From: a virus
Virus record (IMG/VR): IMGVR_UViG_3300029258_005088
Reading direction: 5' to 3' (one strand)
DNA length: 64,000 nucleotides
The notes below the pieces were generated by a model. The model was not told where the DNA came from. It saw only the letters and a list, made by a program, of their open reading frames with translations, and searched no databases. Shown here piece by piece: positions 3,372 to 32,732 of the stretch (its first letter is position 1; each line of letters begins with the position of its first letter). Both the position numbers and the translations under genes were made by a program.

Positions 3372-5213
3372 CTACTTCCGGAACATATCCAGATTGGCCG
3401 TCTTCCTGGGTTTCTTCTTCGGACGCATCCGTATCGCCTCGGCGGCGGCCAGCTTGGCCTCGACCTTGGAGGTATCCACCTCTACATGCCTATGGCCCTT
3501 GGCCGCAAGAACCAGCTTGCTGAGATCCTCGAAGGCCTCTCCGGCAAGCTCGGCGCTGTCTTTCTTGTCCAGTAGCGAGTTCAGGTTCTTCGTCGTCTTG
3601 GCCATCTCAGCCTTTACGTCGTTCTCCAAGTTGGAGAATACGTCCTGGACGAACTTGTCGACCAAACAGTGCTGGTCGTGGAAACGCTCGTAGAACTCAG
3701 GATCGTGATTAGACGTCTCCTGGGAGTCTTCCTCGTGACATAGCTCGTGCAACATCAGTCGGCCGAGCTTCACCACGTCTCCGATCTTGGAGTAGCTGAG
3801 GTTCTTCAGGAAGTCCCGATTGATCGCTATGTACGATCTGCCGTCCGTCCATCCGTTTACGCCCTCGGCTATTCCGACCTTGAGCTTGCGCACGGTGTCC
3901 AGTCCCTGATCCGCCGCTTCCTTATAGGACAGCGGGGTGCCGAACCGCGAATACCGGGCATACCCCTGCGGGAACCTGCGAGCAAGCCTCAGCCACAACC
4001 GCTCCCGCGGACGCAAGTCCTTGTCGGGAACGATCTGGGTGTCGTTGAACAGCTTGTCGGTCAGCGTCTTCAGCAAGCGGACGTCTGGAGTCAACACGGG
4101 GCCGCCGGCAGTCTTCACCAGATCGCACAGCTCCTGTATGGAGTTGACCTCGAACCTCTCCAAGGTATCCTCGGAGAGGACGTAGGCAAGGCCTGTCGTC
4201 ATCACCCTGTCCGCCATGCGATCGCCTCGCTTGGCCAGGCTTATCGGTCCCTGCCTCATCTTGTTGACGAAGGACTGGAACGTGATGTGCTTGCCTCTGC
4301 AGTCCGTGATGATGCGCTGGTCCCTTACCTTCCGATAGACGTTCTCCTCTTCGGCCCATCCATGCAGACCCATGGCCAGACGGCGCCGTGCGGCATCGTC
4401 CAGAGGCTTCTTTCGGATAACGTCGGACGCACGCTTGTCGACTATCTTGCGGACCTTCTGCCAGACCTTGCAGGAACTCAGTATGTCGTTCCTCGCGAAG
4501 TTGACGTCCAGCTCCTTAGTCGACACCACGGTACCGCCCGTACCCCACTGCCAGCTGTCGTAGCCACGGACGAATACGCCCATGTTGTATACGTCCAGCG
4601 TGCCGGAGTCCTTGAACTTGACTAGGCAACTGTCGTCCTTGTGATCCCACTTGGCATGGGATCTGTCGACCGTGATGCGCTCCGGCTCGTCCGGGTGATG
4701 ATACCAGTAGACCGGTATCTCCAGATACTTCAGACCCCTGGTGACCTCGCGCTTCAGGTTCTGCAGGCCGAGACGGGTGAGGCGGTCGTACAAGGTAACG
4801 ACGATCTTGCAACCCTGGGCGTCCTTCTCCTTCTCCTCGAGCTTGTACTCCAGGCCCTTGGTCTTGACGTCGACGGTCATCGCCCACTTGCCGGTACGCC
4901 AGTGGTTGTGGCCATAGGAGAAGATCTGGCCACGGCCCATACGGAACTTGCCGTAATGGGCATCTCCCTCTTCGTGAGGCTGGCCAAAGACCTCGAAGAA
5001 CGTCTCCACCTCCTCCCGGCTGACGAAGCCCTTGCCGTTGTCCTCCATGATGACGGTGTCGTCATCCACGGAGATGTCGAACCTGGTGGCACCTGCGTCC
5101 ACAGCATTCATGGCACCCTCCATGATCGCCTTGGACAAGGTGCCGGCCTGCTTCTGGATTACGTCCAGAAGCAACTTAGGGTGCATGATGAATCTTCTAG
5201 TCTCTTGCTTCAT
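3372..5213 (-). CDS. GHKL (Hsp90/MORC-like) ATPase with C-terminal HExxH metallopeptidase-like motif
   Basis: N box EGAMNAVDA, G1 DNGKG, G2-like GKFRMGRG; C-terminal LHELCHE...NHDPEFY. Confidence 0.8.
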   Translation of the reverse strand: MKQETRRFIMHPKLLLDVIQKQAGTLSKAIMEGAMNAVDAGATRFDISVDDDTVIMEDNGKGFVSREEVETFFEVFGQPHEEGDAHYGKFRMGRGQIFSYGHNHWRTGKWAMTVDVKTKGLEYKLEEKEKDAQGCKIVVTLYDRLTRLGLQNLKREVTRGLKYLEIPVYWYHHPDEPERITVDRSHAKWDHKDDSCLVKFKDSGTLDVYNMGVFVRGYDSWQWGTGGTVVSTKELDVNFARNDILSSCKVWQKVRKIVDKRASDVIRKKPLDDAARRRLAMGLHGWAEEENVYRKVRDQRIITDCRGKHITFQSFVNKMRQGPISLAKRGDRMADRVMTTGLAYVLSEDTLERFEVNSIQELCDLVKTAGGPVLTPDVRLLKTLTDKLFNDTQIVPDKDLRPRERLWLRLARRFPQGYARYSRFGTPLSYKEAADQGLDTVRKLKVGIAEGVNGWTDGRSYIAINRDFLKNLSYSKIGDVVKLGRLMLHELCHEEDSQETSNHDPEFYERFHDQHCLVDKFVQDVFSNLENDVKAEMAKTTKNLNSLLDKKDSAELAGEAFEDLSKLVLAAKGHRHVEVDTSKVEAKLAAAEAIRMRPKKKPRKTANLDMFRK

Positions 5214-16537: not shown

Positions 16538-16734
16538 TCCAGTGGGTTTTCTGTCATCTGTTTGATGGCCTCCTTGGCCTGCTCCTCGCTGTGCCCGTAG
16601 CTCACCAGCTCATCCACTACGGCGCCCACGCTATGGCGGACGACGTAGGTATTGAACGGAGGAACCACGGTGGCACTGCGAATCTCGGTGTCTCCGTCTT
16701 CGTGGACGTACACCAGATATATATCTTTGCTCAT
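16519..16734 (-). CDS. hypothetical protein
   Basis: ATGA-coupled to PP-loop gene. Confidence 0.65.
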   Translation of the reverse strand: MSKDIYLVYVHEDGDTEIRSATVVPPFNTYVVRHSVGAVVDELVSYGHSEEQAKEAIKQMTENPLEWIKVW

Positions 16735-17810
16735 TTGGACTCCTTCATTTCCATCAGCTCTTCGTACCTTCCGATTATGTCTCGAGGAAGGAGGTATTGG
16801 CAGTTCAGCTTCAGAACGGTATGCAGCATGGCGCGCATTCGGGCAAGCTGCCCTGCCTGCTCCATGGTCGGCACCTGGGTGGGCCAGCCCTTGGTATACT
16901 GCATCTCGACTGGAATGGCATCGGACGCTTCCCTGCGCATGGAGGACTTGTGCTTAACCTCCGCTATGATCTCATGGGAGAACGGGCCCAGGAAGGACGG
17001 CTGCCTTTCACAGAGCCAGTCGTTCGGCTTGAAGCTGAACGAGGATCTTATCTCCAGATCTATCAGCCTCTTGTACGAAGCGTGATTTCCCTGACAGGCC
17101 AATGCCGCCAAGTGGTCGGAGTTAGTGGCCAGTACGCAGTACGCACAGCTCAACCGATCGGATCCGTACTCCGTGTACGCCGGATGAAGCGGTAGACCGG
17201 CCTCCTTGTGAACTTCGAATACGTCGTCAACCGTATAGTCCAGTATGGGATTCCACTGCCAGCCACGCGTGCCTTTGGTCTTCACTTTCAGTGTCGACAT
17301 CTCGCTCAGGACAGGCTTCTTCGCCCTTCCCGTGCTCTCCTGCTTCCGAATTCCTACCAGGTTCAGTATGTCCCTTCCGGGAAACATCTTCTTCAGGGCG
17401 GCTACTATGGGCGCTACCTTCAGTTCTCCCGTGCAGAAGCGCCACTGAGAGTTGGACCATGGCGTGATAAGCTTGACGCAGCTCATCTCCTCGAACCGCT
17501 TCACGTTGTCTTCCCATCGCTGCTCCCACCTGTCCACCATATCGCCTTTAGTACGACGCACGATCTTCAGCTGGGTGCCTGCATGGGCGTTCTGGAGCCT
17601 GACCCACTCCGGGGTCTGCGGCCAGTCTATTATCCCTAGATCCGCATGGAAGCATATCCTGCTCTCCATGGGATGTCCTACCTCGTCCAGCCATTGCGAT
17701 ACCTCGTGCACCATAGTGCCCGAGTCCTTGCCTCCGGATATTCCAAAAGCGACAACGGCGTTGTTTCGGACGAGCTCTATGACTTCAGGCGTCAGACTCA
17801 GCTTCCTCAT
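16731..17810 (-). CDS. PAPS-reductase-family PP-loop protein (paralog 1, SGGKDS type)
   Basis: VAFGISGGKDS, FCTGELKVAP, GIRKQESTGRA, WNPILDY, HPAY...RLSCAYC; start re-called to MRKLSL. Confidence 0.85.
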   Translation of the reverse strand: MRKLSLTPEVIELVRNNAVVAFGISGGKDSGTMVHEVSQWLDEVGHPMESRICFHADLGIIDWPQTPEWVRLQNAHAGTQLKIVRRTKGDMVDRWEQRWEDNVKRFEEMSCVKLITPWSNSQWRFCTGELKVAPIVAALKKMFPGRDILNLVGIRKQESTGRAKKPVLSEMSTLKVKTKGTRGWQWNPILDYTVDDVFEVHKEAGLPLHPAYTEYGSDRLSCAYCVLATNSDHLAALACQGNHASYKRLIDLEIRSSFSFKPNDWLCERQPSFLGPFSHEIIAEVKHKSSMRREASDAIPVEMQYTKGWPTQVPTMEQAGQLARMRAMLHTVLKLNCQYLLPRDIIGRYEELMEMKESK

Positions 17811-18132
17811 CGAGGAGCTCCAGCATGTCGTCTTCTTCGTTCCAGTCGCAATAACCATCGAGCATCAAGGACACCGCCTCGTCTGCGTCGATCTCCATCG
17901 CTCCTTCGAAATGCCTCTCGGCGGATTCCAAGAGACTGTCGAACTCCAGAGCCTTCCCCGATTCGTCCGTGCGCTCGGCACAGAATATCATCAGGTCGGC
18001 AAGAAAGTCCGATACGGTGGCCTTGACGTCATTGGGATCCCCTCCTCCGTATTCCGCCAGGAGAGCTTCTATCTCCTCGGCTCTTTTCGCGTTCTTGGGA
18101 TTCCCTTCGAAGTTTCTCTTCACTTCGGACAT
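17785..18132 (-). CDS. acidic hypothetical protein
   Basis: Start re-called to MSEVKR; VSDFLADLMIFC...FDSLLESAERHF. Confidence 0.65.
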   Translation of the reverse strand: MSEVKRNFEGNPKNAKRAEEIEALLAEYGGGDPNDVKATVSDFLADLMIFCAERTDESGKALEFDSLLESAERHFEGAMEIDADEAVSLMLDGYCDWNEEDDMLELLDEEAESDA

Positions 18133-18356
18133 AAACTCTCCATGCAATGTTCTTCGTAACCACAGGACCACAGACCGTCGCCGATGTATTCACATCCGCA
18201 CGCCTTCTGATCGTGTCCTTGCTTCAGGCCCTTCAGGACCTTGTCCAGCTGCTCTTCCGCCAGACAGTCCAGCAGGACGTTTATCGTTGGATGGAGTCTC
18301 CCTTTCTCATCTGTCATGAGCTCGCGGATCTCCTCCTTCTTCTGTTCGCTAGTCAA
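18120..18356 (-). CDS. hypothetical protein
   Basis: Coupled ORF, C-terminal Cys. Confidence 0.6.
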   Translation of the reverse strand: MTSEQKKEEIRELMTDEKGRLHPTINVLLDCLAEEQLDKVLKGLKQGHDQKACGCEYIGDGLWSCGYEEHCMESLCPK

Positions 18357-18579
18357 GGGGCACCGCCTTTCCGTCCTTCCAGACGTAGTTCACGGGATCC
18401 TCGGAGGGCTCGACTCTGTACTCTCGTACGGAAGTCCAGCGCCATTGCAGATCCTTGGCGTATCCCTCGGCCTCGTCTCTAGTCAGAAAACGCAGGGTGT
18501 TTCGGCACCAGTCTCCGTTTCTTTCCGCGATTACATCCACCGCATAGCTGCGGGCCTCTTCCATAATCGGCTGCGACAT
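18349..18579 (-). CDS. conserved small phage protein
   Basis: GGAGG RBS; WCRNTLRFLTRDEAEGYAKDLQWRW motif. Confidence 0.75.
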   Translation of the reverse strand: MSQPIMEEARSYAVDVIAERNGDWCRNTLRFLTRDEAEGYAKDLQWRWTSVREYRVEPSEDPVNYVWKDGKAVPLD

Positions 18580-19414
18580 CCACTTCCTCCACTTTTATCT
18601 GGTGGGGGTTTTCTTTAATTACGGCCTTTTCGATAATATCCATTAGCCCTTCTTCCTCGAGGAACTTGCGCCAGCTTCCCGGCCGCTTGCTCTCAGGCTT
18701 CCGCGTTCCCTTGACGCCATTGCGCCACAAACCCTCTATGGCTTTGAGGTTAGGTCTCGCGTTGTCTTCCATCTGGACGGCTCGCAGTGCGAGATCCGGA
18801 TGTTCGTGGACCATTCTTATCAGCTCGTGCTTCTGCGTACTGGGGCAGTAGAAACACGCGGATTTCACGGGAACCGGCAGACCAACCGCCGCTACCTCTT
18901 CCGCGCACCTGTCTCTGTCCCAGTGCCACTCTCGCAGAGGATACCTGTACTCGTACTTGGGATCCTCTTTGGTGGCTCCTCGCTTGGAGTCCTTGGGCCC
19001 GTCGTCATACCCGATGAGGCGCGTGATGCGTCCTCCTCCCCGTATCCATTCCTGGAACGGTTCGTAGGTATCGACGTACTTGTCCATGGGACCTGCCTTC
19101 CATTTCAAACTGCAGCTCTTGCGGCCGAAGGCCAGGCTGGGAAGGGTCTTGTTCATCAGACAGTTACCTTCTAGGGTACTGTATGGTCCGTACTTGAACC
19201 TCTTCGGAACGTACCTCACGACAGTGACCTCCGGAAAACCATGCTTCCGGAGGTACTCGTTCATGATTGGTATGTAGGCATAGGTCTCCGGCCACTCGTC
19301 TCCGACGTCTGCGAAGAGTATCAAATCCGGGCGCCACGCCCTATTGATCATCCCCACCAACATGGCGGACGAGTCCAGTCCTGCGCCGTAGCTAACTACC
19401 ACGGGCTGTTTCAT
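18479..19414 (-). CDS. PAPS-reductase-family PP-loop protein (paralog 2)
   Basis: VSYGAGLDS, FADVGDEWPETY, CSLKWK, YPLREW, VKSACFYCP. Confidence 0.85.
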   Translation of the reverse strand: MKQPVVVSYGAGLDSSAMLVGMINRAWRPDLILFADVGDEWPETYAYIPIMNEYLRKHGFPEVTVVRYVPKRFKYGPYSTLEGNCLMNKTLPSLAFGRKSCSLKWKAGPMDKYVDTYEPFQEWIRGGGRITRLIGYDDGPKDSKRGATKEDPKYEYRYPLREWHWDRDRCAEEVAAVGLPVPVKSACFYCPSTQKHELIRMVHEHPDLALRAVQMEDNARPNLKAIEGLWRNGVKGTRKPESKRPGSWRKFLEEEGLMDIIEKAVIKENPHQIKVEEVDVAADYGRGPQLCGGCNRGKKRRLVPKHPAFSD

Positions 19415-19620
19415 ATATAGATTTCCCAGGTGTGGTCGTCGTACACCTTGAGCAACCAGATGGATCCATCCGGAAGCTGCCAGCTCGTTAGCCTGAATGA
19501 CTTTCCACGAACCGGGTGGTGGTACCCGCCATCCACTCTCTGGGTTGCCTTATGTTCAATCAGGAGCGCCTTCAACTGGCTCCGCCCCGTCTTCTCCGTA
19601 GTCTGGGTCTTCGCCTTCAT
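19411..19620 (-). CDS. hypothetical protein
   Basis: ATGA-coupled ORF. Confidence 0.6.
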   Translation of the reverse strand: MKAKTQTTEKTGRSQLKALLIEHKATQRVDGGYHHPVRGKSFRLTSWQLPDGSIWLLKVYDDHTWEIYI

Positions 19621-19984
19621 TGAGTTGCTCCTCTATCCTATTTACGAGGTTGTACGTCACGGTGTCGTGACTCTCCGAGATTATCGCCTCTATAGGATCT
19701 ACCATTTCTTTTCTAATGATCGAAGCCTCTATCCTGAGAACTTCCTTCAAAGTCTCGACCTTTTCTTCTTTGGTCAGACTATCGTACTTCTGCCTGGTCG
19801 TCGCCTCGGTAACCGCAGACAACAACCTTCCGCGTATCTGCATGCCAAGAACGACGCGCCTCTGTGCAACGGTCTCCGCTGCCTTGCGGTCCATGCCTTT
19901 CTTCGTCAAGCGCACTACCTCTGCGGCGACGTCCATCTTCGTCTGCTGGGACATCGCCTCGACCCAGCTATCCGTATCGCTCAT
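19556..19984 (-). CDS. helical hypothetical protein
   Basis: Start re-called to MSDTDS. Confidence 0.6.
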   Translation of the reverse strand: MSDTDSWVEAMSQQTKMDVAAEVVRLTKKGMDRKAAETVAQRRVVLGMQIRGRLLSAVTEATTRQKYDSLTKEEKVETLKEVLRIEASIIRKEMVDPIEAIISESHDTVTYNLVNRIEEQLNEGEDPDYGEDGAEPVEGAPD

Positions 19985-19986
19985 GT

Positions 19987-20208
19987 CTACTCCGGGGGTT
20001 TGTAGTTCACGGTACACAAGCTATAACCCTTCCTGGACGCGACTTCAAGAACGTTGTCGTAGTCTTCTTCGTCAAACCCCAGATCTCCCCAGAGTTCTTT
20101 CAGAAGCTTTCCGCTCTCGTCGTCATCCGCCATGAAGGAACGTCGAATATGCCGGACCTTGATCTCCGGAGAGAAGAACTTCTCCATTCTATCCGTCATG
20201 GTCGTCAT
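19987..20208 (-). CDS. hypothetical protein
   Basis: ORF with GGAG RBS. Confidence 0.6.
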   Translation of the reverse strand: MTTMTDRMEKFFSPEIKVRHIRRSFMADDDESGKLLKELWGDLGFDEEDYDNVLEVASRKGYSLCTVNYKPPE

Positions 20209-20608
20209 GCCTGAGCTCCTCTATGGTTCTTCCGCAGACGTGGGGAAGAAACCCGTCGCACTGCATCTCGTCCGCCGTTTCCATCTCCTCTTCGGAAGTT
20301 GTCTCATGCCCTTGGGCCGCAAGCCAGTGATCCACCTGGATGAGGTAATCTCCATAGGCCATATCGCATACGTCCTGCTCCAGCTCTCCGCCTATCCACT
20401 CCTCAAGGAAGCCGACGGCAACCGTTCTGACGTACTCCTCGATATTGCCTTTGTCGTCCTTCACCTCGAACAGCAGAGGCTGATCCGAGAACTCTATGAT
20501 TTCGACTAGCGTGCTTAGATCGTCGACTTCGCAGTACTTCCTCGCGAACGCGTCGATCTCATGCATGCTCTGCCGGCATCTATCCAGCAATTCTTTCAGT
20601 TTCTTCAT
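20189..20608 (-). CDS. acidic hypothetical protein
   Basis: ORF with GGAG RBS. Confidence 0.65.
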   Translation of the reverse strand: MKKLKELLDRCRQSMHEIDAFARKYCEVDDLSTLVEIIEFSDQPLLFEVKDDKGNIEEYVRTVAVGFLEEWIGGELEQDVCDMAYGDYLIQVDHWLAAQGHETTSEEEMETADEMQCDGFLPHVCGRTIEELRHDDHDG

Positions 20609-21056
20609 CGGACTCCTTCGCTACGAAACACCACCCGTCGATGGTCCAGTACTCCGTACCGTCTATCTCGCACTTCCTGGCTTCGTACGTATTCAATTCT
20701 CGCTGATCGGATCCGGGCTCGGAACCGTCGTCGTAGAAAAACTGAATACGGTGTTCAGTTTCTTCCTCCAGGGTGAAACCCTCTGCCTTCAGGAATCGGA
20801 GCATCTCCGGCTTCTCGAAGTAAGGCTCTCTCCATCCGTTCCAGTAGGAGTTGTGATCCATCATGCAGTCGAACCACTCCTCCGTGTTGATGGCCACCTT
20901 TGCAGGCGCCCAGTCCATGCTATAGGTGGTCTCCTCCGCGGCCGTCTTCGGAATGCGGCACTGGAATCCCCCGCCAAGAGGGAAGCAAATGTAATGATCA
21001 CGCTCTTCTTCGCGTACGTCATAGTACATCTCGTCTACTTTAATCAATCGACTCAC
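20580..21056 (-). CDS. acidic hypothetical protein
   Basis: Start re-called to GTG 21056 behind GGAG. Confidence 0.65.
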   Translation of the reverse strand: MSRLIKVDEMYYDVREEERDHYICFPLGGGFQCRIPKTAAEETTYSMDWAPAKVAINTEEWFDCMMDHNSYWNGWREPYFEKPEMLRFLKAEGFTLEEETEHRIQFFYDDGSEPGSDQRELNTYEARKCEIDGTEYWTIDGWCFVAKESDEETERIAG

Positions 21057-21567
21057 ACTGTATCTCCGCTTCGTATTCGGGATCGGACTCCGATACCTGG
21101 TTGAAATTGAGACCACCTGCCTTCTCCAAGGCCTTCTCCTCGGCTTCCGCAACGGAGCGGGCCTTGACGATGACCTTCATCGTACGGGTGGTCGTTCGCT
21201 TGAGCTCTCCCGAGAACTTCCGCTCCCGTGGGGGAAAGTCTATCCGAATGCCAAGCTGATCCGCAAGCTCTCCGGACTCCAGAGCCTCTCTGACGATAGC
21301 TTCATGGAACTCTCTTCCTCGGGATGCTCTCATCTTCTCCAGCCTGCCGTCGTGCTTCTGTCTGTAGCAGGGCAGGTCTCTGACGTCGAACTCGTGACCG
21401 GCCTCGGGATCCCACAGGTCTTCCTCGTTCTCGAAGACCTTGTACCAGTCTGACAGGGCAACTCTCTCGGAGAGGTCGGTCTCGTCGTTCTTGTAGACGT
21501 GGTAAATCGGATAGCCTTCTACTAGGAAGGCCAGATCCGGCTTGACCCAATCACTTACGTATGGCAT
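21040..21567 (-). CDS. hypothetical protein
   Basis: IYHVYKND...FDVRDLP segment; tiles with neighbours. Confidence 0.7.
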   Translation of the reverse strand: MPYVSDWVKPDLAFLVEGYPIYHVYKNDETDLSERVALSDWYKVFENEEDLWDPEAGHEFDVRDLPCYRQKHDGRLEKMRASRGREFHEAIVREALESGELADQLGIRIDFPPRERKFSGELKRTTTRTMKVIVKARSVAEAEEKALEKAGGLNFNQVSESDPEYEAEIQCESID

Positions 21568-21712
21568 CGTCTTGCTTCCTGGCCTCCGTGGCCTTCAGGG
21601 TTACCGTAGCGAGCCATCGCACGCAAGCGATGACCATTCGGAAAGCGGACAGCAGACAGTTCTTCAACTCTTCCAATGCCTCTTTGCCCTCAGGCTGTTT
21701 CTTTTTCGTCAT
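21551..21712 (-). CDS. small hypothetical protein (53 aa)
   Basis: Manual translation MTKKKQPEGKEALEELKNCLLSAFRMVIACVRWLATVTLKATEARKQDDAIRK fills the gap. Confidence 0.45.
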   Translation of the reverse strand: MTKKKQPEGKEALEELKNCLLSAFRMVIACVRWLATVTLKATEARKQDDAIRK

Positions 21713-21902
21713 TCTCGAATTCCTCCTTTCCTTTTCTGCACGGCCTGCAGAGACCGTCTTCTATGGGACCGAACGTGGTCCAGCCCTCTTGTTCGAACAG
21801 CAGCATATCGTAGCTGCCTTCCGGCTCGTCGTCGGCTTCATGGCCACACAGCCTGCAGAACTGGTCTACCACTCGATCTTCTTCTTTCTCGGTACTTTCC
21901 AT
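21690..21902 (-). CDS. small protein with CxxC pairs
   Basis: CRLC ... CRPC. Confidence 0.6.
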   Translation of the reverse strand: MESTEKEEDRVVDQFCRLCGHEADDEPEGSYDMLLFEQEGWTTFGPIEDGLCRPCRKGKEEFENDEKETA

Positions 21903-22171
21903 TTCAACTTTCCGTGCTTTTCTTCGAACTTGTCCATCGCCTCATTTCTACTGGAGGCTCTGACGAAGTCCTGGAAACCGTGGTCGTTCATGGCGCAATA
22001 CAAGTTGGCCGGCATGCCCCAGAAGGCACCGCCCTCGTCATAGCAACCATCTATGAACCGTACGTAGAAACAACGCATCGGCTTGTCCTTCCCGTCGGTG
22101 CATCTCGAACGCCCCATGGGGGCTCCGTACCGACACGGAACCGGGGGAAGCTGTGGGTTTTTCATCGACAT
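21866..22171 (-). CDS. conserved phage protein (YGAPMGR...YDEGGAFWG type)
   Basis: Motif recalled from large-phage hypothetical proteins. Confidence 0.7.
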   Translation of the reverse strand: MSMKNPQLPPVPCRYGAPMGRSRCTDGKDKPMRCFYVRFIDGCYDEGGAFWGMPANLYCAMNDHGFQDFVRASSRNEAMDKFEEKHGKLKWKVPRKKKIEW

Positions 22172-22449
22172 CAGGCACCTGCCAGACGGGATCCCGCCAT
22201 GAATTCACGAACATCTGCTGGGTGTATCCGTAGCTGCTGTCCGATTTTAATGATCGGGATGCTTCCCGCGTTTATGAGTCTTCGTACACTCGTCGAGGAT
22301 ATGTTCAGGAAGTGGGCCACAGATCCTTCCGTAAGCAGCTCTTCAAGAGGAAGTTCCTGCTTCACAGATTTAGTGTTGACCTCTATGCTTCCGGTTATCT
22401 CCGCACGGAAAACCATCAGGTTAGCTTTCTTTCTTTTCTTACTCTTCAT
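22171..22449 (-). CDS. excisionase-like/MerR-type helix-turn-helix DNA-binding protein
   Basis: LLTEGSVAHFLNISSTSVRRLINAGSIPIIKIGQQLRIHPADVREFM. Confidence 0.85.
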   Translation of the reverse strand: MKSKKRKKANLMVFRAEITGSIEVNTKSVKQELPLEELLTEGSVAHFLNISSTSVRRLINAGSIPIIKIGQQLRIHPADVREFMAGSRLAGA

Positions 22450-23345
22450 CAGTAACTACTATTGTTGCAATGGCCGTGGCTGAAGCGGTACTCTCTGAGT
22501 TCCTCCGCAGTCATGTGGCCGTATTTCTCTTTGGCAACCTCGAGCATCTCGGGGAGCGTCTTCTCGTTTCCCCAGACACCGACGTTGCGCTCCTTGTCCT
22601 TGCTCTTTTCCATCTTGACGCGCTCCTGCCTTACCCAGTCTTCGTATACCTCCGGGAAATCCGTTGCAAGCCACAGGAGCTCCTGCAGGTTCGCCCACGG
22701 ACACTTCAGACAACAGCTGGGCCAAGGGACTCTGTCTCCATGGCTACGCATGTAATCCTGGCACTTCTGCCTGTCCATACCTCTGTCTATCAAGGGATAG
22801 GACTTCTCCAGACAAAGCTCCTGCCACTTGGCATGATGCCGGGCCTTGGCTACGCGCTTCTCCTCGCCGGCGGCTATGCCCAGCAGGATCCGGATCTTAC
22901 CGAAGCTTCTGACGAACGCCACGATCGGCGCCTTGCCCCGGTACTTCTTCTCGGGGTTCTCTATGTCGTAGTGCTTCTCGATCCAGTACGCGAGCCAACG
23001 ATAGATCACCTGCACCTTGAGCTTGTCCGTACAACTCTTGGGAAACGCCTTCGAGAAGACAGTCCCGTGAGTGTCCATCTGCTCGTCCAGGCTATGCCAC
23101 TTGGGACTATGGAATCCGAGATCCGGTGTCAGCCACCAGAACTCGATTCCGTCCCTCATGCATATCTCGTTCACCTCTTGCGCGTACTCATACGTCTGTG
23201 GAAGCTCGTTGCCCGTATCGCTGAAGACCACTGCGAACTGGTTAGGTGCATACTCCTTCCTGAACTCGGGATCGTGCCGGTACATCGACAACAACGCGCC
23301 GCTGTCCTGGCCCATACCCATGCTCAGTATGGTAAGTTCAGACAT
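22449..23345 (-). CDS. PAPS-reductase-family PP-loop protein (paralog 3)
   Basis: LSMGMGQDS, FSDTGNELPQTY, CTDKLK, SYPLID, PSCCLKCP. Confidence 0.85.
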   Translation of the reverse strand: MSELTILSMGMGQDSGALLSMYRHDPEFRKEYAPNQFAVVFSDTGNELPQTYEYAQEVNEICMRDGIEFWWLTPDLGFHSPKWHSLDEQMDTHGTVFSKAFPKSCTDKLKVQVIYRWLAYWIEKHYDIENPEKKYRGKAPIVAFVRSFGKIRILLGIAAGEEKRVAKARHHAKWQELCLEKSYPLIDRGMDRQKCQDYMRSHGDRVPWPSCCLKCPWANLQELLWLATDFPEVYEDWVRQERVKMEKSKDKERNVGVWGNEKTLPEMLEVAKEKYGHMTAEELREYRFSHGHCNNSSY

Positions 23346-23616
23346 CTCTGTACTGGGGGTTCTCTTCGTTGTCCTTGCGTATGGCCCGGAAAAGCTCTAC
23401 GAGAGCTGCCCGGGTGTGAGGGGATCCCCCTCCACCGGAGCTCAGCTCGCAGAACTCCACGGACTTGGTATAGCGCATGATCTCCGAAGGATCCGGATTT
23501 ATGTAGACGATGATGTCTCCGTCTTCCTGAACCACAAGGCCGAGACGGCCTCTGTGAGACATGTCTTCGAACCTCTCAGCAGATTCGTTCGGTTTTATGT
23601 CGGATAGGTCTATCAT
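23338..23616 (-). CDS. conserved small phage protein
   Basis: QEDGDIIV...SVEFC...GGGGSPHTRAAL. Confidence 0.7.
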   Translation of the reverse strand: MIDLSDIKPNESAERFEDMSHRGRLGLVVQEDGDIIVYINPDPSEIMRYTKSVEFCELSSGGGGSPHTRAALVELFRAIRKDNEENPQYRDV

Positions 23617-24487: not shown

Positions 24488-25209
24488 TCGTGGTAGTCTC
24501 CGCGCACTTGGTCGAGAAGCTGTTTATAGGCTTCCTCGTCCTCGTACATATCTGTGTTCAAAGGCGTAGGACGCCACTGATTCTGGTCGTCTATGTACTC
24601 CATATACCGACTGCACCTGACGTAATGGATCTCATCCACGGGACTGGACATGATCTCCATGTCCGCTTCGTCGGTGATCTGCTCATCCGGGTCCTCGTGC
24701 TCCGCAACATACGTGATGTACCAGAAGCAGTAGTTCCTCTCAGCTGAACAGATGGTCGTCGTCTCGTTCTTGTCTACGAGATAGACGTTGCTGATCTTCT
24801 TGATCTTGTGCTTGCTGAGGAAGCCCTTGTTCCAGTACTCGGTCTCATCGACCTTTACGACCCAGAAGTCCGGGGCGTTCTTTCTGCTACCGTCCTCAGT
24901 ATCCTCGAGATACATCGACTCGATGTCATCAGCAAGACCTGGCCAGAACGTAGGTCCTCGGCCGCCGTCGTGATTGTTCTGTACGTGCTCGACAAGATAC
25001 TCCAGCTCGTCATCGGCCAGCACAAGCTCCATCTCCTCGGCAACGTTAAGAATCTCCCTGGGAGACACGACGTGAACGAGGAATTCCTTGAAATACTCGG
25101 TCATCACGTCCTTTACCTTCTGCCTGGTTATAACGACTTCGTCGCCATCCAGGGCATGGCCCGTGAGATCTCCTGCTATCTGGTTAATCATCGATGCGTG
25201 TAAAGGCAT
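24472..25209 (-). CDS. acidic hypothetical protein
   Basis: Start re-called to MPLHAS behind GGAGG; contains HD..G..W segment similar to 6766..7329. Confidence 0.7.
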   Translation of the reverse strand: MPLHASMINQIAGDLTGHALDGDEVVITRQKVKDVMTEYFKEFLVHVVSPREILNVAEEMELVLADDELEYLVEHVQNNHDGGRGPTFWPGLADDIESMYLEDTEDGSRKNAPDFWVVKVDETEYWNKGFLSKHKIKKISNVYLVDKNETTTICSAERNYCFWYITYVAEHEDPDEQITDEADMEIMSSPVDEIHYVRCSRYMEYIDDQNQWRPTPLNTDMYEDEEAYKQLLDQVRGDYHECPIW

Positions 25210-25558
25210 TATTCCTCCTATCGAAAACGGGAAGGCCCAATGCACAGGCCGTCTCGTACATGTTGTCGGTTCCAGGCCCACCGGGGAACACGACTAGGGC
25301 TCCGACGCCCTTGACGTATTCCGCCATCTGCCTGTTTCGTATCGGGCCGGCGGCGTTTCCAAGCTCGCGCCAGTTCGGAGGGAACCTCTTCACGGAGATG
25401 CCTCGGCTCACGGCCCAGTCCTCCCCGCAGGTGTCCACTCCACTGGCCGTACCACTTACGACCTCGGTGACGGGCACCTCTGCATGGATCCAGTCCAGCA
25501 AGGCATAGTCCTCGTCATCGAGCATGACGTCCCGGCCGCCTGCGATTATTAGTCTCAC
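25184..25558 (-). CDS. SLOG-superfamily (YspA/DUF2493-like) nucleotide-binding protein
   Basis: RLIIAGGRD, VVSGTASGVD, AAGPIRNRQM, VVFPGGPGT; GTG start in GTGA overlap. Confidence 0.85.
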   Translation of the reverse strand: MRLIIAGGRDVMLDDEDYALLDWIHAEVPVTEVVSGTASGVDTCGEDWAVSRGISVKRFPPNWRELGNAAGPIRNRQMAEYVKGVGALVVFPGGPGTDNMYETACALGLPVFDRRNNAFTRIDD

Positions 25559-25761
25559 AGGTACAGGTCGTTGAGGTCTCTGCCGCCCGGAAGGTTGACC
25601 AAGGCCTCGGATATGTTTCCACGCCACCAACCTCTCTCTACGAGCCTGCGTCCGACGTTACGGAAAATCTCCCGCTGCCTCTCGGTTACTTCCGAAGTAT
25701 CGATCATGGTGTCGAGCCACTTGCGGATCCTCTTCGGAGAGTTCCATGGTTCGCTAATCAT
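25555..25761 (-). CDS. hypothetical protein
   Basis: Coupled ORF. Confidence 0.65.
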   Translation of the reverse strand: MISEPWNSPKRIRKWLDTMIDTSEVTERQREIFRNVGRRLVERGWWRGNISEALVNLPGGRDLNDLYL

Positions 25762-29738: not shown

Positions 29739-30212
29739 CTATTCCCGTGTTATTGCATAAGATATGTCGCCATGGAGCCGTAACCGGTCCCATCGGCGGA
29801 CGTCGACGCGGGAATCTCCGTATAGCCCTCTGTAGTTGGCCAGACTAAGCCAGTTCTCCTCCATCTCAACCACGAGGGCTGCGTGATTGGTGGCCTCATC
29901 GACTTGGATAAGAAGCATGACAGGGATGTTTTCCCGTACGATCTCAATATCCGATTCGATAGGTGTCATTCTCAGGTTTAAGTGTTCCGCCGCCTCCCGC
30001 ACCCGGAACATCTCCGGCATGCAGTAGCGACACTTGGTCATTGCCAGCAGTTGCATCCAGCCGTATCCCTGTACAGGCACGCTCTTCTCTCCGAAGAAAA
30101 TGAGCGCGTTCAACAGAGCCAGTACGTGACAACAGTAGCCGTGATGCTGACGCTGCTGGACGTACCTCAGGCCGCCAAGGCGTCCAGGCAGTGCAATATC
30201 TGGGCCCGGCAC
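29739..30212 (-). CDS. putative C39-like (papain-fold) cysteine peptidase
   Basis: QQRQHHGYCCHVLALLNAL (Q...C), NHAALVV (H), LANY; start re-called to GTG 30212. Confidence 0.45.
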   Translation of the reverse strand: MPGPDIALPGRLGGLRYVQQRQHHGYCCHVLALLNALIFFGEKSVPVQGYGWMQLLAMTKCRYCMPEMFRVREAAEHLNLRMTPIESDIEIVRENIPVMLLIQVDEATNHAALVVEMEENWLSLANYRGLYGDSRVDVRRWDRLRLHGDISYAITRE

Positions 30213-31675
30213 AAGTTCCTTGCCGTCTGCACGGGAACCGCGTTCCCTATCTGCCTTATCTGATCTCCCTTGTTTCCGCAAAAGGTATACTCCTTCGGGA
30301 AGCTCATCGCCGCGGCCAGTTCATGCGGCTGAAGCATTCTGTAGTAGATGTCCAGACCTACCTGAACCAATCCGTACTTGTTGCTGCTGGCCAATATGGT
30401 CGGGATCGGGTAGTCGACGGAATGTGGCTTGGTGTTGCCGTAGTAGTCGATCAAAAACCCGCTCTGCACCATTCCGAAACGACCCTTGGTAGGAATCGTG
30501 GCCAACGGTTTGTCCAGGCTGTGAGGAACTTTCCCGGATCCCGACCCATAGTACTGGATCAGGAAACTCTCCACCAGAGAGATCGCACCTTTCGTCGCGA
30601 TCGTCGGAAGAGGGTTCTCCACAGGCCTGGGTGCGCTGCCTCCGTGCTGGCCTATGATCATCGGAGTTGCCAGGCCGAATCTGTTCCCACCTGCCGTCAC
30701 AGTGTGCAGCGGATGGTTCAGGTCTCCCGTCCTCGGCGTCACTCCTCCATAGTACTCCACCAAATACGGCTCCACGAGCCCGTGGTGGGTCCCTCCTGCC
30801 GTTATTCCGTTCAGAGGGAGGTTTACGTCGCGAGCGCCTCCCGTGCCTCTCAGAATCGTTAAAAACGGCTCCATGAGATCTCCGCCGTATCTCTCGAGAC
30901 CTGCGATGATCTTGTTCATGGTGTTTTCGGCAAGAGGCTTCTTGCGATCGAAGATGGACTGACTCGGGTATTCCCAGTCGATGATGTCCCTGGCAGGTAT
31001 CCACGGCTTGAGACCGAACCTGGCCTCCTTGTCGTGACTAAAGGCCGGAAACGCGGGAGCGTCGGAACGACGAGCGAGAAGGAAGAACCTCCGCCTCGTC
31101 GTTGGATCTCCGTAGTCGGCGCAGTTCACGACTGCGTAACTCACGTAGTATCCACATGCCCTCAGTGCGTTCATCCATGCCTGGAAGATCTCACCCTTCT
31201 TCTCCGGATCGGGAATCATCCAGGGATCCCCGCCTTTGTTGTACATCCGCTTGCCCTTGGCATCTCTCTTCTGGATCAGAGGTCCCCAGTCCTGGAACTC
31301 GGGGACGTTCTCGACGATGACGACTTCCGGACACAAGGCTTCCGCCCATCGGAGAACGTGCCAGGCCGTAGCCCGACTTTGATCGTCCGACGGCTTTCCG
31401 CCCTTGGCCACGGAATGATTCGTGCACTCCGGACTGGCGATCAGCATGTGAAGCTGCTTGCCTTTGTAGATCTTGCGAGGATCGACGTTATCCAGCGAGT
31501 CGCACACCGGAGTTACGTGAGGGTGATTGGCGCAGTGCGTCTTCAGCGCCTTTTCGTTGTGATTGAACGCATGCATTCTGATGTCTACACCGACGTCCGC
31601 TCCGGCCTGGAAACAGCCCTCGGCCGTTCCCCCTGCGCCAGCGAACAGATCCGCGACGTTTATGCATTTACACAT
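30167..31675 (-). CDS. dcm: DNA (cytosine-5)-methyltransferase
   Basis: Motif I DLFAGAGG, IV SPEC, VI ENV, VIII TRRRFF, IX RMLQPHELAAAMSFP, X QIGNAVP; five repeats in the variable region. Confidence 0.95.
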   Translation of the reverse strand: MCKCINVADLFAGAGGTAEGCFQAGADVGVDIRMHAFNHNEKALKTHCANHPHVTPVCDSLDNVDPRKIYKGKQLHMLIASPECTNHSVAKGGKPSDDQSRATAWHVLRWAEALCPEVVIVENVPEFQDWGPLIQKRDAKGKRMYNKGGDPWMIPDPEKKGEIFQAWMNALRACGYYVSYAVVNCADYGDPTTRRRFFLLARRSDAPAFPAFSHDKEARFGLKPWIPARDIIDWEYPSQSIFDRKKPLAENTMNKIIAGLERYGGDLMEPFLTILRGTGGARDVNLPLNGITAGGTHHGLVEPYLVEYYGGVTPRTGDLNHPLHTVTAGGNRFGLATPMIIGQHGGSAPRPVENPLPTIATKGAISLVESFLIQYYGSGSGKVPHSLDKPLATIPTKGRFGMVQSGFLIDYYGNTKPHSVDYPIPTILASSNKYGLVQVGLDIYYRMLQPHELAAAMSFPKEYTFCGNKGDQIRQIGNAVPVQTARNLCRAQILHCLDALAA

Positions 31676-31941
31676 AGGGCGGATGCCCTCCTATTCAGTA
31701 CGTTCGACGGATAGAGCACGCCTCTGTCACTGGTAATCAGCACAAGAGGTACCCTAAGGGCGTTGAGCAGGACGTCCAAAAACGTCAGATTGGTGCTGGT
31801 TCTCCGACACACCACGAGGAGAAGCTTGCCGTCTGCCTTGGCCACGCCTTCGATATCTCTTATGAGATCATGGACTTCGCCTGCAGTACGATAATTGCCG
31901 CTCATCTCTCTGGAACCCTTGGTGGTTATGATTTCGATCAC
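31660..31941 (-). CDS. hypothetical protein
   Basis: GTG start in TAGTG overlap with upstream stop. Confidence 0.55.
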   Translation of the reverse strand: MIEIITTKGSREMSGNYRTAGEVHDLIRDIEGVAKADGKLLLVVCRRTSTNLTFLDVLLNALRVPLVLITSDRGVLYPSNVLNRRASALCVNA

Positions 31942-32573
31942 TAATGCACTCCGTACGAAACATGTTTTACCGTGTGCATCCAGCAGGCTCTGCATTTGCC
32001 GCACGGTGACTTCGTCTTCACCGCCTGACATATGTGAGCCCCCGGGACTTTCTCCTCGGACGTATGTACCGAGGACACCAACATATCCGTATCTGGTATT
32101 TCATTGAAGTTATGACCCGACAATCGGATCACGAGGTTCGTAGGAACGTCCTCGTCCTTGACGACTGATTCCACGAATCTGTACTCCCTCGTCGGCAGCC
32201 AGTGCATGACGTCGGGAGTCTTTCTACACACCTCGAAGATGTTCTTCAGATGTCTGTGGCCCTGCAGATCTCCGCTGTCATGCCAGCGGAAGTGCGTGTG
32301 GCCTTTCTCGTACCTGAACGTAATCTCGAATACCATACACTCGATCCAGCGAGGATCCATGAGAGAATCCAGCCGTCTGTACATGGCCTTGATCACGTTT
32401 GGGAATACGTAACGCCCCTTTAGAGCGTAACAATGCGAGCAGACCGTGTTCTCGTGTCTGCGCAGTCTGGAGCCCACGATACATTTCTCCGCTGGGAGGT
32501 TGTAGCTGTATCCGGGCATCTTCGAGGGATTCGACAGCCCACCTGTGACTGCCTGAGCTTCTTTAAGAAACAT
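31941..32573 (-). CDS. Gp88-like Cys-rich phage protein
   Basis: GLSNPSKMPG, CIVGS...VCSHCYA, HFRWHDSGD, HWLPTRE, VIRLS, CGKCRACW...VSYGVH; start re-called to MFLKEA. Confidence 0.8.
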   Translation of the reverse strand: MFLKEAQAVTGGLSNPSKMPGYSYNLPAEKCIVGSRLRRHENTVCSHCYALKGRYVFPNVIKAMYRRLDSLMDPRWIECMVFEITFRYEKGHTHFRWHDSGDLQGHRHLKNIFEVCRKTPDVMHWLPTREYRFVESVVKDEDVPTNLVIRLSGHNFNEIPDTDMLVSSVHTSEEKVPGAHICQAVKTKSPCGKCRACWMHTVKHVSYGVH

Positions 32574-32623
32574 ATACCGGTCCCTTGTATAGGGGTCCAC
32601 GTTACATGATTTCTTACAAAAGA

Positions 32624-32634
32624 TATTTACAATA
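32624..32634 (-). promoter_or_regulatory. TATTGTAAATA motif, copy 1 (candidate phage promoter)
   Basis: Identical 11-mer at 35223-35233; both intergenic and upstream of minus-strand genes. Confidence 0.45.
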
Positions 32635-32658
32635 AAAAGGCGCCCCCGAAGGGGCGCC
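32634..32658 (-). terminator. intrinsic terminator
   Basis: GGCGCCCC-ttcg-GGGGCGCC-TTTTT. Confidence 0.8.
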
Positions 32659-32732
32659 CCGTGTTCTTGCTTCCGCGTCCGTGACCAGGTCCGGGACGCT
32701 TCCACAACCGTGTTTTCTGCAGATCTCCTAGC

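Follow-up and report, generated by a model that had tools for sequence, protein, structure and literature searches.

A trio of phage PAPS-reductase-like genes related to SspD, DndC and BrxP, with a probable role in DNA sulfur modification or anti-defence

Results

Three PAPS-reductase-like genes in one phage gene block

The virus record IMGVR_UViG_3300029258_005088 (IMG/VR) carries, within the 64,000-nucleotide stretch analysed here (the window), three genes for proteins that resemble 3′-phosphoadenosine 5′-phosphosulfate (PAPS) reductases, which we call A, B and C. The window is the last 64 kb of the 201,176-bp metagenomic contig k141_1722295 (ENA ERZ27256770; a window position equals the record position minus 137,113) and consists of one long phage gene block, nearly all of it on the minus strand, with an even GC content of 53–61%. 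Gene A (16731..17810, minus strand, 359 aa) encodes an A-type PP-loop protein with the motifs SGGKDS, RFCTGELK and SCAYC and a C-terminal helical extension of ~130 aa. Gene B (18479..19414, minus strand, 311 aa) encodes an SspD-like protein with the variant PP-loop SYGAGLDS, followed by KSCSLKWK, SACFYCP and a poorly conserved C-terminal tail. Gene C (22449..23345, minus strand, 298 aa) encodes an SspD-like paralog of B, again with a variant PP-loop (SMGMGQDS), and with KSCTDKLK, SCCLKCP and a conserved C-terminal SHGHC tail. The open reading frames (ORFs) and their translations confirm an earlier note on this DNA, which had reported three PP-loop genes with these loop and cysteine motifs at these positions, and a sweep with hidden Markov models found exactly three such genes in the whole window.

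The longest ORF of gene A extends to 17858 (375 aa); the public collection has the shorter form, with its start at 17810, and orthologs measure 359–362 aa. Gene C is wholly covered by a longer, 336-aa antisense ORF (22470-23480, plus strand), which in tblastn matches C homologs on their antisense strand and which we rejected as an artefact of ORF listing.

All three proteins match phrog_424, annotated as ‘PAPS reductase’ (A, E 1e-25; B, 1e-21; C, 1e-25). Against the Pfam family PAPS_reduct (PF01507, gathering score 22.5 bits) A passes with 44.9 bits, and B and C fall slightly under with 19.8 and 18.5 bits. The Pfam score of A, together with profile and fold evidence, places the trio in the PP-loop ATP pyrophosphatase/PAPS_reduct superfamily. 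The PP-loop SGGxDS is canonical in A, whereas B and C have the variant S-x-G-x-G-x-DS, whose G, D and S reach 90% conservation or more within the families. In family alignments of 40–42 members each, the residues of the PP-loop, the central Cys-x3-Lys and the CxxC pair are invariant or nearly so; the invariant cysteines of the B family are C85, C101, C170, C187 and C190, and the conserved ones of the C family are C105, C195, C212 and C215.

Three old lineages maintained together

By BLASTP, A has no detectable similarity to B or to C, and B and C share 25% identity (E 2e-15), so that the paralogs are, as the earlier note held, too divergent for a recent duplication. Comparison of families by hhalign does connect them: the A and B families match at 93% (E 3e-7) over the whole domain, with the three motifs in register, and the B and C families at 99.9%. 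Each gene belongs to a separate large family that phages and conjugative elements carry, with at least 993 homologs for A, at least 1376 for B and 99 for C. Many A homologs lie in Burkholderia, Ralstonia and Pseudomonas genomes and in viral contigs, and B homologs are nearly all unnamed metagenomic proteins. Among the A-family matches in bacterial genomes, the best segment (46% identity) is a partial one, covering residues 2–274, in a Planctomycetota metagenome-assembled genome, Tepidisphaeraceae (L097, JASGJJ010000006.1). The divergence and the separate large families thus indicate that three ancient lineages have come together in one phage and that the trio did not arise by local duplication.

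A related 55-kb contig has an ortholog trio at 67–79% amino-acid identity. The ratio of non-synonymous to synonymous substitution rates (dN/dS) against these orthologs is at most about 0.09 for each gene, with synonymous sites saturated, and values this low indicate that all three genes are maintained under strong purifying selection. Beyond near relatives, the full trio was seen in a single distant phage.

The trio stands apart from metabolic CysH

The usual database label of such genes (phrog_424 and the names given by the Joint Genome Institute) would make the trio cysH auxiliary metabolic genes that boost assimilatory sulfate reduction of the host. Likeness to CysH does exist. The fold of A is nearest to adenosine 5′-phosphosulfate (APS) and PAPS reductases, the AlphaFold2 model (predicted local distance difference test score, pLDDT, 95) having APS reductase 2goy as its best match over the core (template-modelling score, TM, 0.65 normalised to the target) and an additional C-terminal helical domain of ~130 aa; and in the alignment the CC...CxxC residues of the CysH references stand at the Cys motifs of the trio. 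The catalytic C-terminal tail ECG[LI]H of CysH, however, which reads CGLH in all four CysH references, is missing: nothing comparable is found in A or B, and C ends in SHGHC. All three proteins also have a single Cys where CysH has a CC pair. The scores against the corresponding NCBIfam models are far under the cut-offs, A reaching 21.4 bits with the CysH equivalog NF002537 (cut-off 154) and 18.6 bits with the APS reductase model TIGR02055 (cut-off 235), and B and C giving no match to either.

Phylogeny points the same way. In a maximum-likelihood tree rooted on CysD, with small sampling and long branches and with tRNA thiolases and QueC not included, CysH splits off first as a separate clade (Shimodaira–Hasegawa-like approximate likelihood-ratio test, SH-aLRT, 98), and the A, B and C families group with BrxP, DndC and SspD (SH-aLRT 88). 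Within this group B and C are sisters (93) and together are sister to SspD (84). An approximately unbiased (AU) test rejects a topology in which the three families are forced together with CysH, which is 19.6 log-likelihood units worse (p-AU 0.02), the tested group having been named after the tree had been seen and on the same small sampling and long branches. In this tree the paralogs thus do not group with bona fide CysH. A Pfam sweep of the 82 other window ORFs (13 families listed) likewise found no sulfate-assimilation family, and none of the cysD/N/C/I/J type.

The low model scores, the missing CGLH tail, the tree, the AU test and the absence of sulfate-assimilation partners from the window make it well supported that A, B and C are not metabolic CysH, in agreement with the earlier note. 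Three copies of one metabolic step would, moreover, be redundant, and we regard the auxiliary-metabolic-gene reading as extremely unlikely.

SspD is the nearest family of all three proteins

Sequence comparison identifies SspD as the nearest family for all three proteins, which are relatives, not orthologs, of any named family. SspD ranks first in hhalign for A (E 4e-15), B (6e-18) and C (3e-18). Next for A come BrxP (9e-14), DndC (1e-11) and CysH (3e-10), and B and C match the families other than SspD at about 1e-5 to 1e-7. The PADLOC models matched by the trio are SspD, DndC and BrxP. The SspD model detects B at E 3e-12 (44.9 bits) and C at E 2e-13 (48.4 bits), compared with 285–455 bits for genuine SspD, and the BrxP and DndC models detect A at E 1e-8 to 1e-9; the BrxP matches of the trio are confined to the PAPS domain, the reference BrxP being a protein of 786 aa. 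With the DndC equivalog TIGR03183 (cut-off 290 bits) A scores 31.4 bits, genuine DndC scores 342–377, and B and C give no match.

The motifs follow the same pattern. The central Cys-x3-Lys corresponds to the R-W-C-T-x-x-x-K motif of SspD, DndC and BrxP and aligns with CC-x-x-R-K of the CysH references, and the terminal Cys pair corresponds to the G-C-x-x-C motif common to SspD, DndC, BrxP and the CysH references. In this alignment the three proteins retain the ATP-binding loop, the R-x-C-T-x-x-x-K motif and the CxxC pair. The CC...CxxC residues of APS reductases bind a [4Fe-4S] cluster, and DndC is an Fe-S protein. The C...CxxC triad is conserved in each of the three families, and its single Cys at the central position suggests a site of three cysteines, comparable with the one in the [4Fe-4S] thiolases TtuA and NcsA. 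PADLOC, hhalign and the motif alignment therefore agree with the kinship to DndC and SspD that the earlier note had recognised, and the Cys pattern is of the same Fe-S type. The SHGHC tail of the C family aligns where SspD sequences have a CxxC tail, and from the alignment it could possibly provide a mobile, persulfide-carrying cysteine.

The likeness to each named family has its limits. SspD resembles the trio in size (250–290 aa), in the R-W-C-T-x-x-x-K and G-C-x-x-C motifs and, as far as C is concerned, in a Cys-bearing C-terminal tail; it is the best profile match of all three and the sister group of B and C in the tree. The phage-encoded B and C differ from it in their inserted PP-loop S-x-G-x-G-x-DS and in their far lower PADLOC scores, and the Pfam sweep suggested no SspA, SspB (DUF4007) or SspC neighbour in the window. 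DndC and BrxP have in common with A the canonical SGGKDS loop and the arrangement of cysteines, but A is far below the DndC cut-off, with no DndBDE genes nearby; BrxP, in turn, is a multidomain protein in which the PAPS domain is fused to DUF4007, in contrast to the 298–359 aa of the phage proteins, and no BrxCZL genes lie nearby.

Solved structures open up a different choice of target. The AlphaFold2 model of B (pLDDT 88) matches TtuA, PAPS reductase, LarE and NcsA over the core only (TM about 0.37), and among solved structures the A-family profile matches TtuA at E 3.5e-5 over the PP-loop region; sequence and profile searches of the solved structures gave nothing useful for B or C, and no match for a ‘PAPS reductase’ of a lambdoid Klebsiella phage. 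The best fold matches of B thus include the [4Fe-4S] tRNA thiolases TtuA and NcsA, with LarE, YcfA and Cap9 also matched, and solved YcfA entries bind ATP and GTP. The proteins could then act on tRNA or other RNA (as do TtuA, NcsA and TtcA), on free nucleotides (compare YcfA) or on protein (compare the QueC-like Cap9, acting on CdnD), which would fit a window in which the Pfam sweep found neither a nickase nor any SMC-type ATPase other than SbcC. Sequence profiles, on the other hand, place SspD, BrxP and DndC well above other families, the TM-scores to TtuA are low, the recurrent neighbours and fusion partners described below (C5 methylase, ParB, ArdA) act on DNA, and the one genetically tested phage case concerns a defence based on DNA phosphorothioate. 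We consider a target other than DNA rather unlikely.

A methylase is an occasional neighbour and GP88 is not a recurrent one

The earlier note had further proposed that the trio forms a multi-step modification pathway with a C5 methyltransferase, a GP88-like protein and two CxxCxxCC proteins of the same region. The C5 cytosine DNA methyltransferase (30167..31675, minus strand, 502 aa; phrog_116 E 6e-78, PF00145 E 1e-34) lies 6.8 kb upstream of gene C. The GP88-family protein is encoded at 31941..32705 on the minus strand; the PF17338 match (E 2e-28) was found in the swept window ORFs and assigned to this ORF by gene order in a relative (L006), in which the GP88 gene stands just upstream of the methylase. 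An HTH_17 DNA-binding protein (22171..22449, minus strand, 92 aa; PF12728) has a start codon that overlaps the stop of gene C; no HTH_17 homolog was found beside 30 other C-family genes, and it is therefore not a conserved partner.

Co-occurrence was examined in 80 IMG/VR loci with a B homolog and 10-kb flanks. Homologs of GP88 and of 19 other window neighbours are present in none of the 80, a C5 methylase is present in three, and no neighbour of B is conserved across the set; the largest apparent cluster of B ‘neighbours’ proved to be an overlapping out-of-frame ORF inside the B gene. The HTH_17 protein, GP88 and the small ORFs around the trio have homologs only in near relatives. On three viral contigs (L013, L014 and L082) a C5 methylase directly follows B, and in the distant phage (L003/L004) a 10-kb stretch contains an A-like gene, C, B and a C5 methylase. 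The methylase link is therefore real but occasional.

That all these genes form one DNA hypermodification pathway would accord with their position in a single co-directional block, conserved in the 55-kb relative, and with the arrangement in the distant phage. The counts from the B loci do not bear it out, and neither does the confinement of the full trio. Other ~200-kb viral contigs with a B gene, moreover, have one or two phrog_424 matches; this profile is unspecific, with matches in all 14 control bacterial and archaeal genomes, and copy counting by it was for this reason limited to viral records. The proposed pathway with the methylase, GP88 and the CxxCxxCC proteins thus finds no support in co-occurrence, and we judge a single pathway of this kind decidedly improbable.

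Homologs elsewhere sit in telling surroundings. In Pedobacter chitinilyticus a C-family gene lies between ardA and a gene for a 616-aa ParB_N/HTH_ParB protein (L091:8001-10818, SAYW01000002.1), followed by a primase-like gene, MobC, a relaxase and a coupling protein, presumably the leading region of a conjugative element. In Pseudomonas aeruginosa an A-family gene is found in an island with ssb and a gene for an NA37 nucleoid-associated protein. One IMG/VR contig (L021:335-4846) has a 1504-aa ORF that joins a B-like domain (~aa 350-606) to a ddrB-like ParB domain (aa 1078-1207) and looks like a polyvalent-type protein. These contexts, with ArdA, ParB and C5 methylase, point to conflict with host defences.

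Genes for DUF5983 proteins also occur near such homologs, a few kb from B on a 202-kb viral contig (L001:11329-11898) and near A in the P. aeruginosa island (L089:1031-1333). Elsewhere in the window, a small YAcAr protein of the YspA-related SLOG family, whose domains are nucleotide-binding, is encoded at 25184-25630 (minus strand); it is kept in the 55-kb relative and has no homolog near other B genes. A 613-aa protein at 3372-5213 (minus strand) has a weak match to the GHKL ATPases (HATPase_c_3). A replication module occupies 35–55 kb, with an initiator, a DnaB-like helicase, a family A polymerase, a UvsX-like recombinase and SbcCD; the sole SMC-like protein of the window is the SbcC-like one, next to the SbcD-like metallophosphatase. 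A megablast search of 16–24 kb against 50,697 phage records gave no match, and a promoter and terminator scan of 14–32.8 kb gave a number of sites not above that in shuffled sequence.

A-type genes recur beside B- and C-type genes

A second gene, of A-type, is present in 9 of the 80 B loci and in 8 of 30 C loci, and a B-type gene in 2 of 25 A loci. As one A locus is on the same contig as one B locus, this amounts to 18 distinct viral contigs with a heterotypic pair, a count that is uncorrected for shared ancestry and inflated by it. Co-occurring PAPS-like genes are nearly always of different types. No further gene could fit between the partners in five pairs (L153, L157, L168, L173 and L215), whose stop-to-stop ORFs touch or overlap. 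Every A-type partner with readable motif regions keeps SGGKDS, R-x-C-T-x-x-x-K and C-x-x-C, and outside these genes the pair-bearing contigs share almost nothing with the window. The recurrence of such pairs, together with the composition of the window trio (one A-type and two B/C-type genes), suggests cooperation of A with B, C or both, or else complementary specificities of the two types. Multiple copies are uncommon in published data: a survey that covered 7,334 phage genomes counted 167 ‘cysH’ genes, and only three genomes had two (PMC10914622).

A desulfurase-like gene and the IscS connection

Outside the window the contig encodes a divergent class V aminotransferase (Aminotran_5, 356 aa) resembling IscS, NifS, SspA and DndA (L147:15995-17065, record positions 92,423-93,493), 43.6 kb before the window start. 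It matches the PADLOC models SspA (E 7e-46) and DndA (2e-43) and the NCBIfam model NifS (3e-41), yet in the last case with 141 bits against a cut-off of 530. Its nearest solved relatives are IscS/NFS1-type desulfurases, and by eye it keeps the pyridoxal phosphate lysine (SGAK) and a loop cysteine. The surrounding region (L146/L147, ~18–48 kb before the window start) is a glycosyltransferase island (GT2, GT9, Gly_transf_sug, Mannosyl_trans3) interleaved with class I and FkbM-type methyltransferases.

The earlier note had suggested host IscS as a possible sulfur donor. In favour of this, the PDB entry 21fy contains as chain C a protein named PptA, matched by genuine bacterial SspD at E 9e-6, and also a chain with the sequence of 1p3w, which is named cysteine desulfurase IscS. 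This lends the suggestion indirect support. By sequence, PptA is not detectably similar to A, B or C. Our literature search found no paper on PptA.

Discussion

The proteins described here are nearest to enzymes that put sulfur into the DNA backbone, and for this reason they most likely aid the phage in escaping host defences rather than serve sulfur metabolism. Homology and context make a function in DNA sulfur modification or anti-defence probable, and of all readings the DNA-modification or anti-restriction role advanced in the earlier note is the best supported by these two lines of evidence. Taken as a whole, the proposal that the trio are stand-alone members of the SspD/DndC/BrxP branch with such a role, and not parts of one methylase/GP88 pathway, has in our estimate about an even chance of being right.

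Published work provides several points of reference. BrxP is required for phosphorothioation in BREX type 4, and in all four known phosphorothioation systems a protein with a PAPS-reductase domain acts together with an NTPase (PMC12914056). In Vibrio crassostreae podoviruses the gene p0018, a fusion of a PAPS domain with Dam, and its neighbour p0019 lead to escape from Dnd (bioRxiv 10.1101/2021.05.05.442762). Phage PAPS reductases regulated by Aca have been proposed as anti-defence genes (PMC13551039), while other authors read such phage genes as sulfur-metabolism genes (PMC10914622). The trio resembles these stand-alone phage proteins (PHROG 424, PptA, p0018) in that all three of its genes match phrog_424 and in a similar location, amid variable accessory genes near DNA methylases. 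With PptA in particular it shares the SspD-like nature, PptA having been deposited with the IscS-sequence chain and being undetectable from the phage proteins. It differs from p0018 in consisting of three separate genes of three families, none of them fused to a methylase.

In mechanistic terms, we envision that each protein would bind a [4Fe-4S] cluster through its three cysteines and would take sulfur from a cysteine desulfurase, which may be host IscS, as the PptA entry suggests, or the divergent IscS/NifS-like protein of the phage. Each would then adenylate its target with ATP, after which oxygen would be replaced by sulfur. The most likely target would be DNA, which would receive phosphorothioation or a related mark and thereby evade host restriction or phosphorothioate-based defences (Dnd, Ssp, BREX type 4).

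Several observations weigh against this proposal. None of the three proteins reaches ortholog level with DndC (31 bits versus 290) or SspD (45–48 versus 285–455), and the tree support for the deep branches is moderate, on small sampling. The established phosphorothioation systems need partners of the ATPase and nickase type (PMC12914056), and no Pfam family suggesting a DndD/SspC-type ATPase, a DndE/SspB nickase or ParB was found among the 82 other window ORFs. The B gene stands alone in 70 of the 80 B loci. As for the sulfur supply, PptA was undetected with the sequences or family profiles of A, B and C at E values up to 1–10; the desulfurase-like gene is distant from the trio, amid glycosyltransferase and methyltransferase genes; its product has, by eye, the conserved catalytic His replaced; and no homolog of it was found in five other large viral contigs with a B gene.

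The need of known systems for an ATPase and a nickase, neither of which is in the window, is also what a non-enzymatic role would account for. The proteins might be decoys or hijackers that bind the host partners of DndC, SspD or BrxP, or IscS, and either block defence or recruit the host machinery to phage DNA; three paralogs would then be aimed at three host systems. Such a role would be in keeping with the phage gene for a PAPS domain that, with its neighbour, beats Dnd, no other Dnd-like phage gene being reported, and with PptA sharing one PDB entry with an IscS-sequence chain. A pure binder, however, would not need the PP-loop, Cys triad and Lys that are invariant or nearly so in these families, and Dnd and Ssp, which were each found in only 4 of 300 sampled genomes, have a far narrower distribution than the families. 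We find a decoy or hijacker role unlikely and continue to favour enzymes that modify DNA.

A more specific version of the enzymatic proposal follows the gene pairs. An A-type and a B/C-type protein might form a two-subunit, phage-autonomous DNA sulfur-modification enzyme that works without a DndD/SspC-type ATPase and nickase and is fed by the phage desulfurase. The eukaryotic Ncs6/Ncs2 paralog pair of tRNA thiolation offers a loose parallel. This arrangement is speculative and, in our view, quite unlikely; if true, the two-subunit enzyme and the phage desulfurase would constitute a complete viral pathway for phosphorothioation or a new thio-modification.

Genes of this kind are already known; the novelty lies in the maintenance of three copies, in the pairing of unlike types and in a genome that also encodes a desulfurase-like protein. 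Phage ‘PAPS reductase’ or ‘cysH’ is among the most often reported viral auxiliary metabolic genes and a basis for the claim that viruses drive sulfur cycling. The present case adds evidence that many such genes belong to the DNA-phosphorothioation branch and lie amid anti-restriction genes, and for the families described here a metabolic role is probably a misreading. The present phage, in which three divergent copies are maintained and which has its own desulfurase-like gene, offers a good test bed for this question. If it is true that phages sulfur-mark their own DNA without an ATPase and nickase, phosphorothioate DNA would be made by a new route, and the enzymes would form a new anti-defence class.

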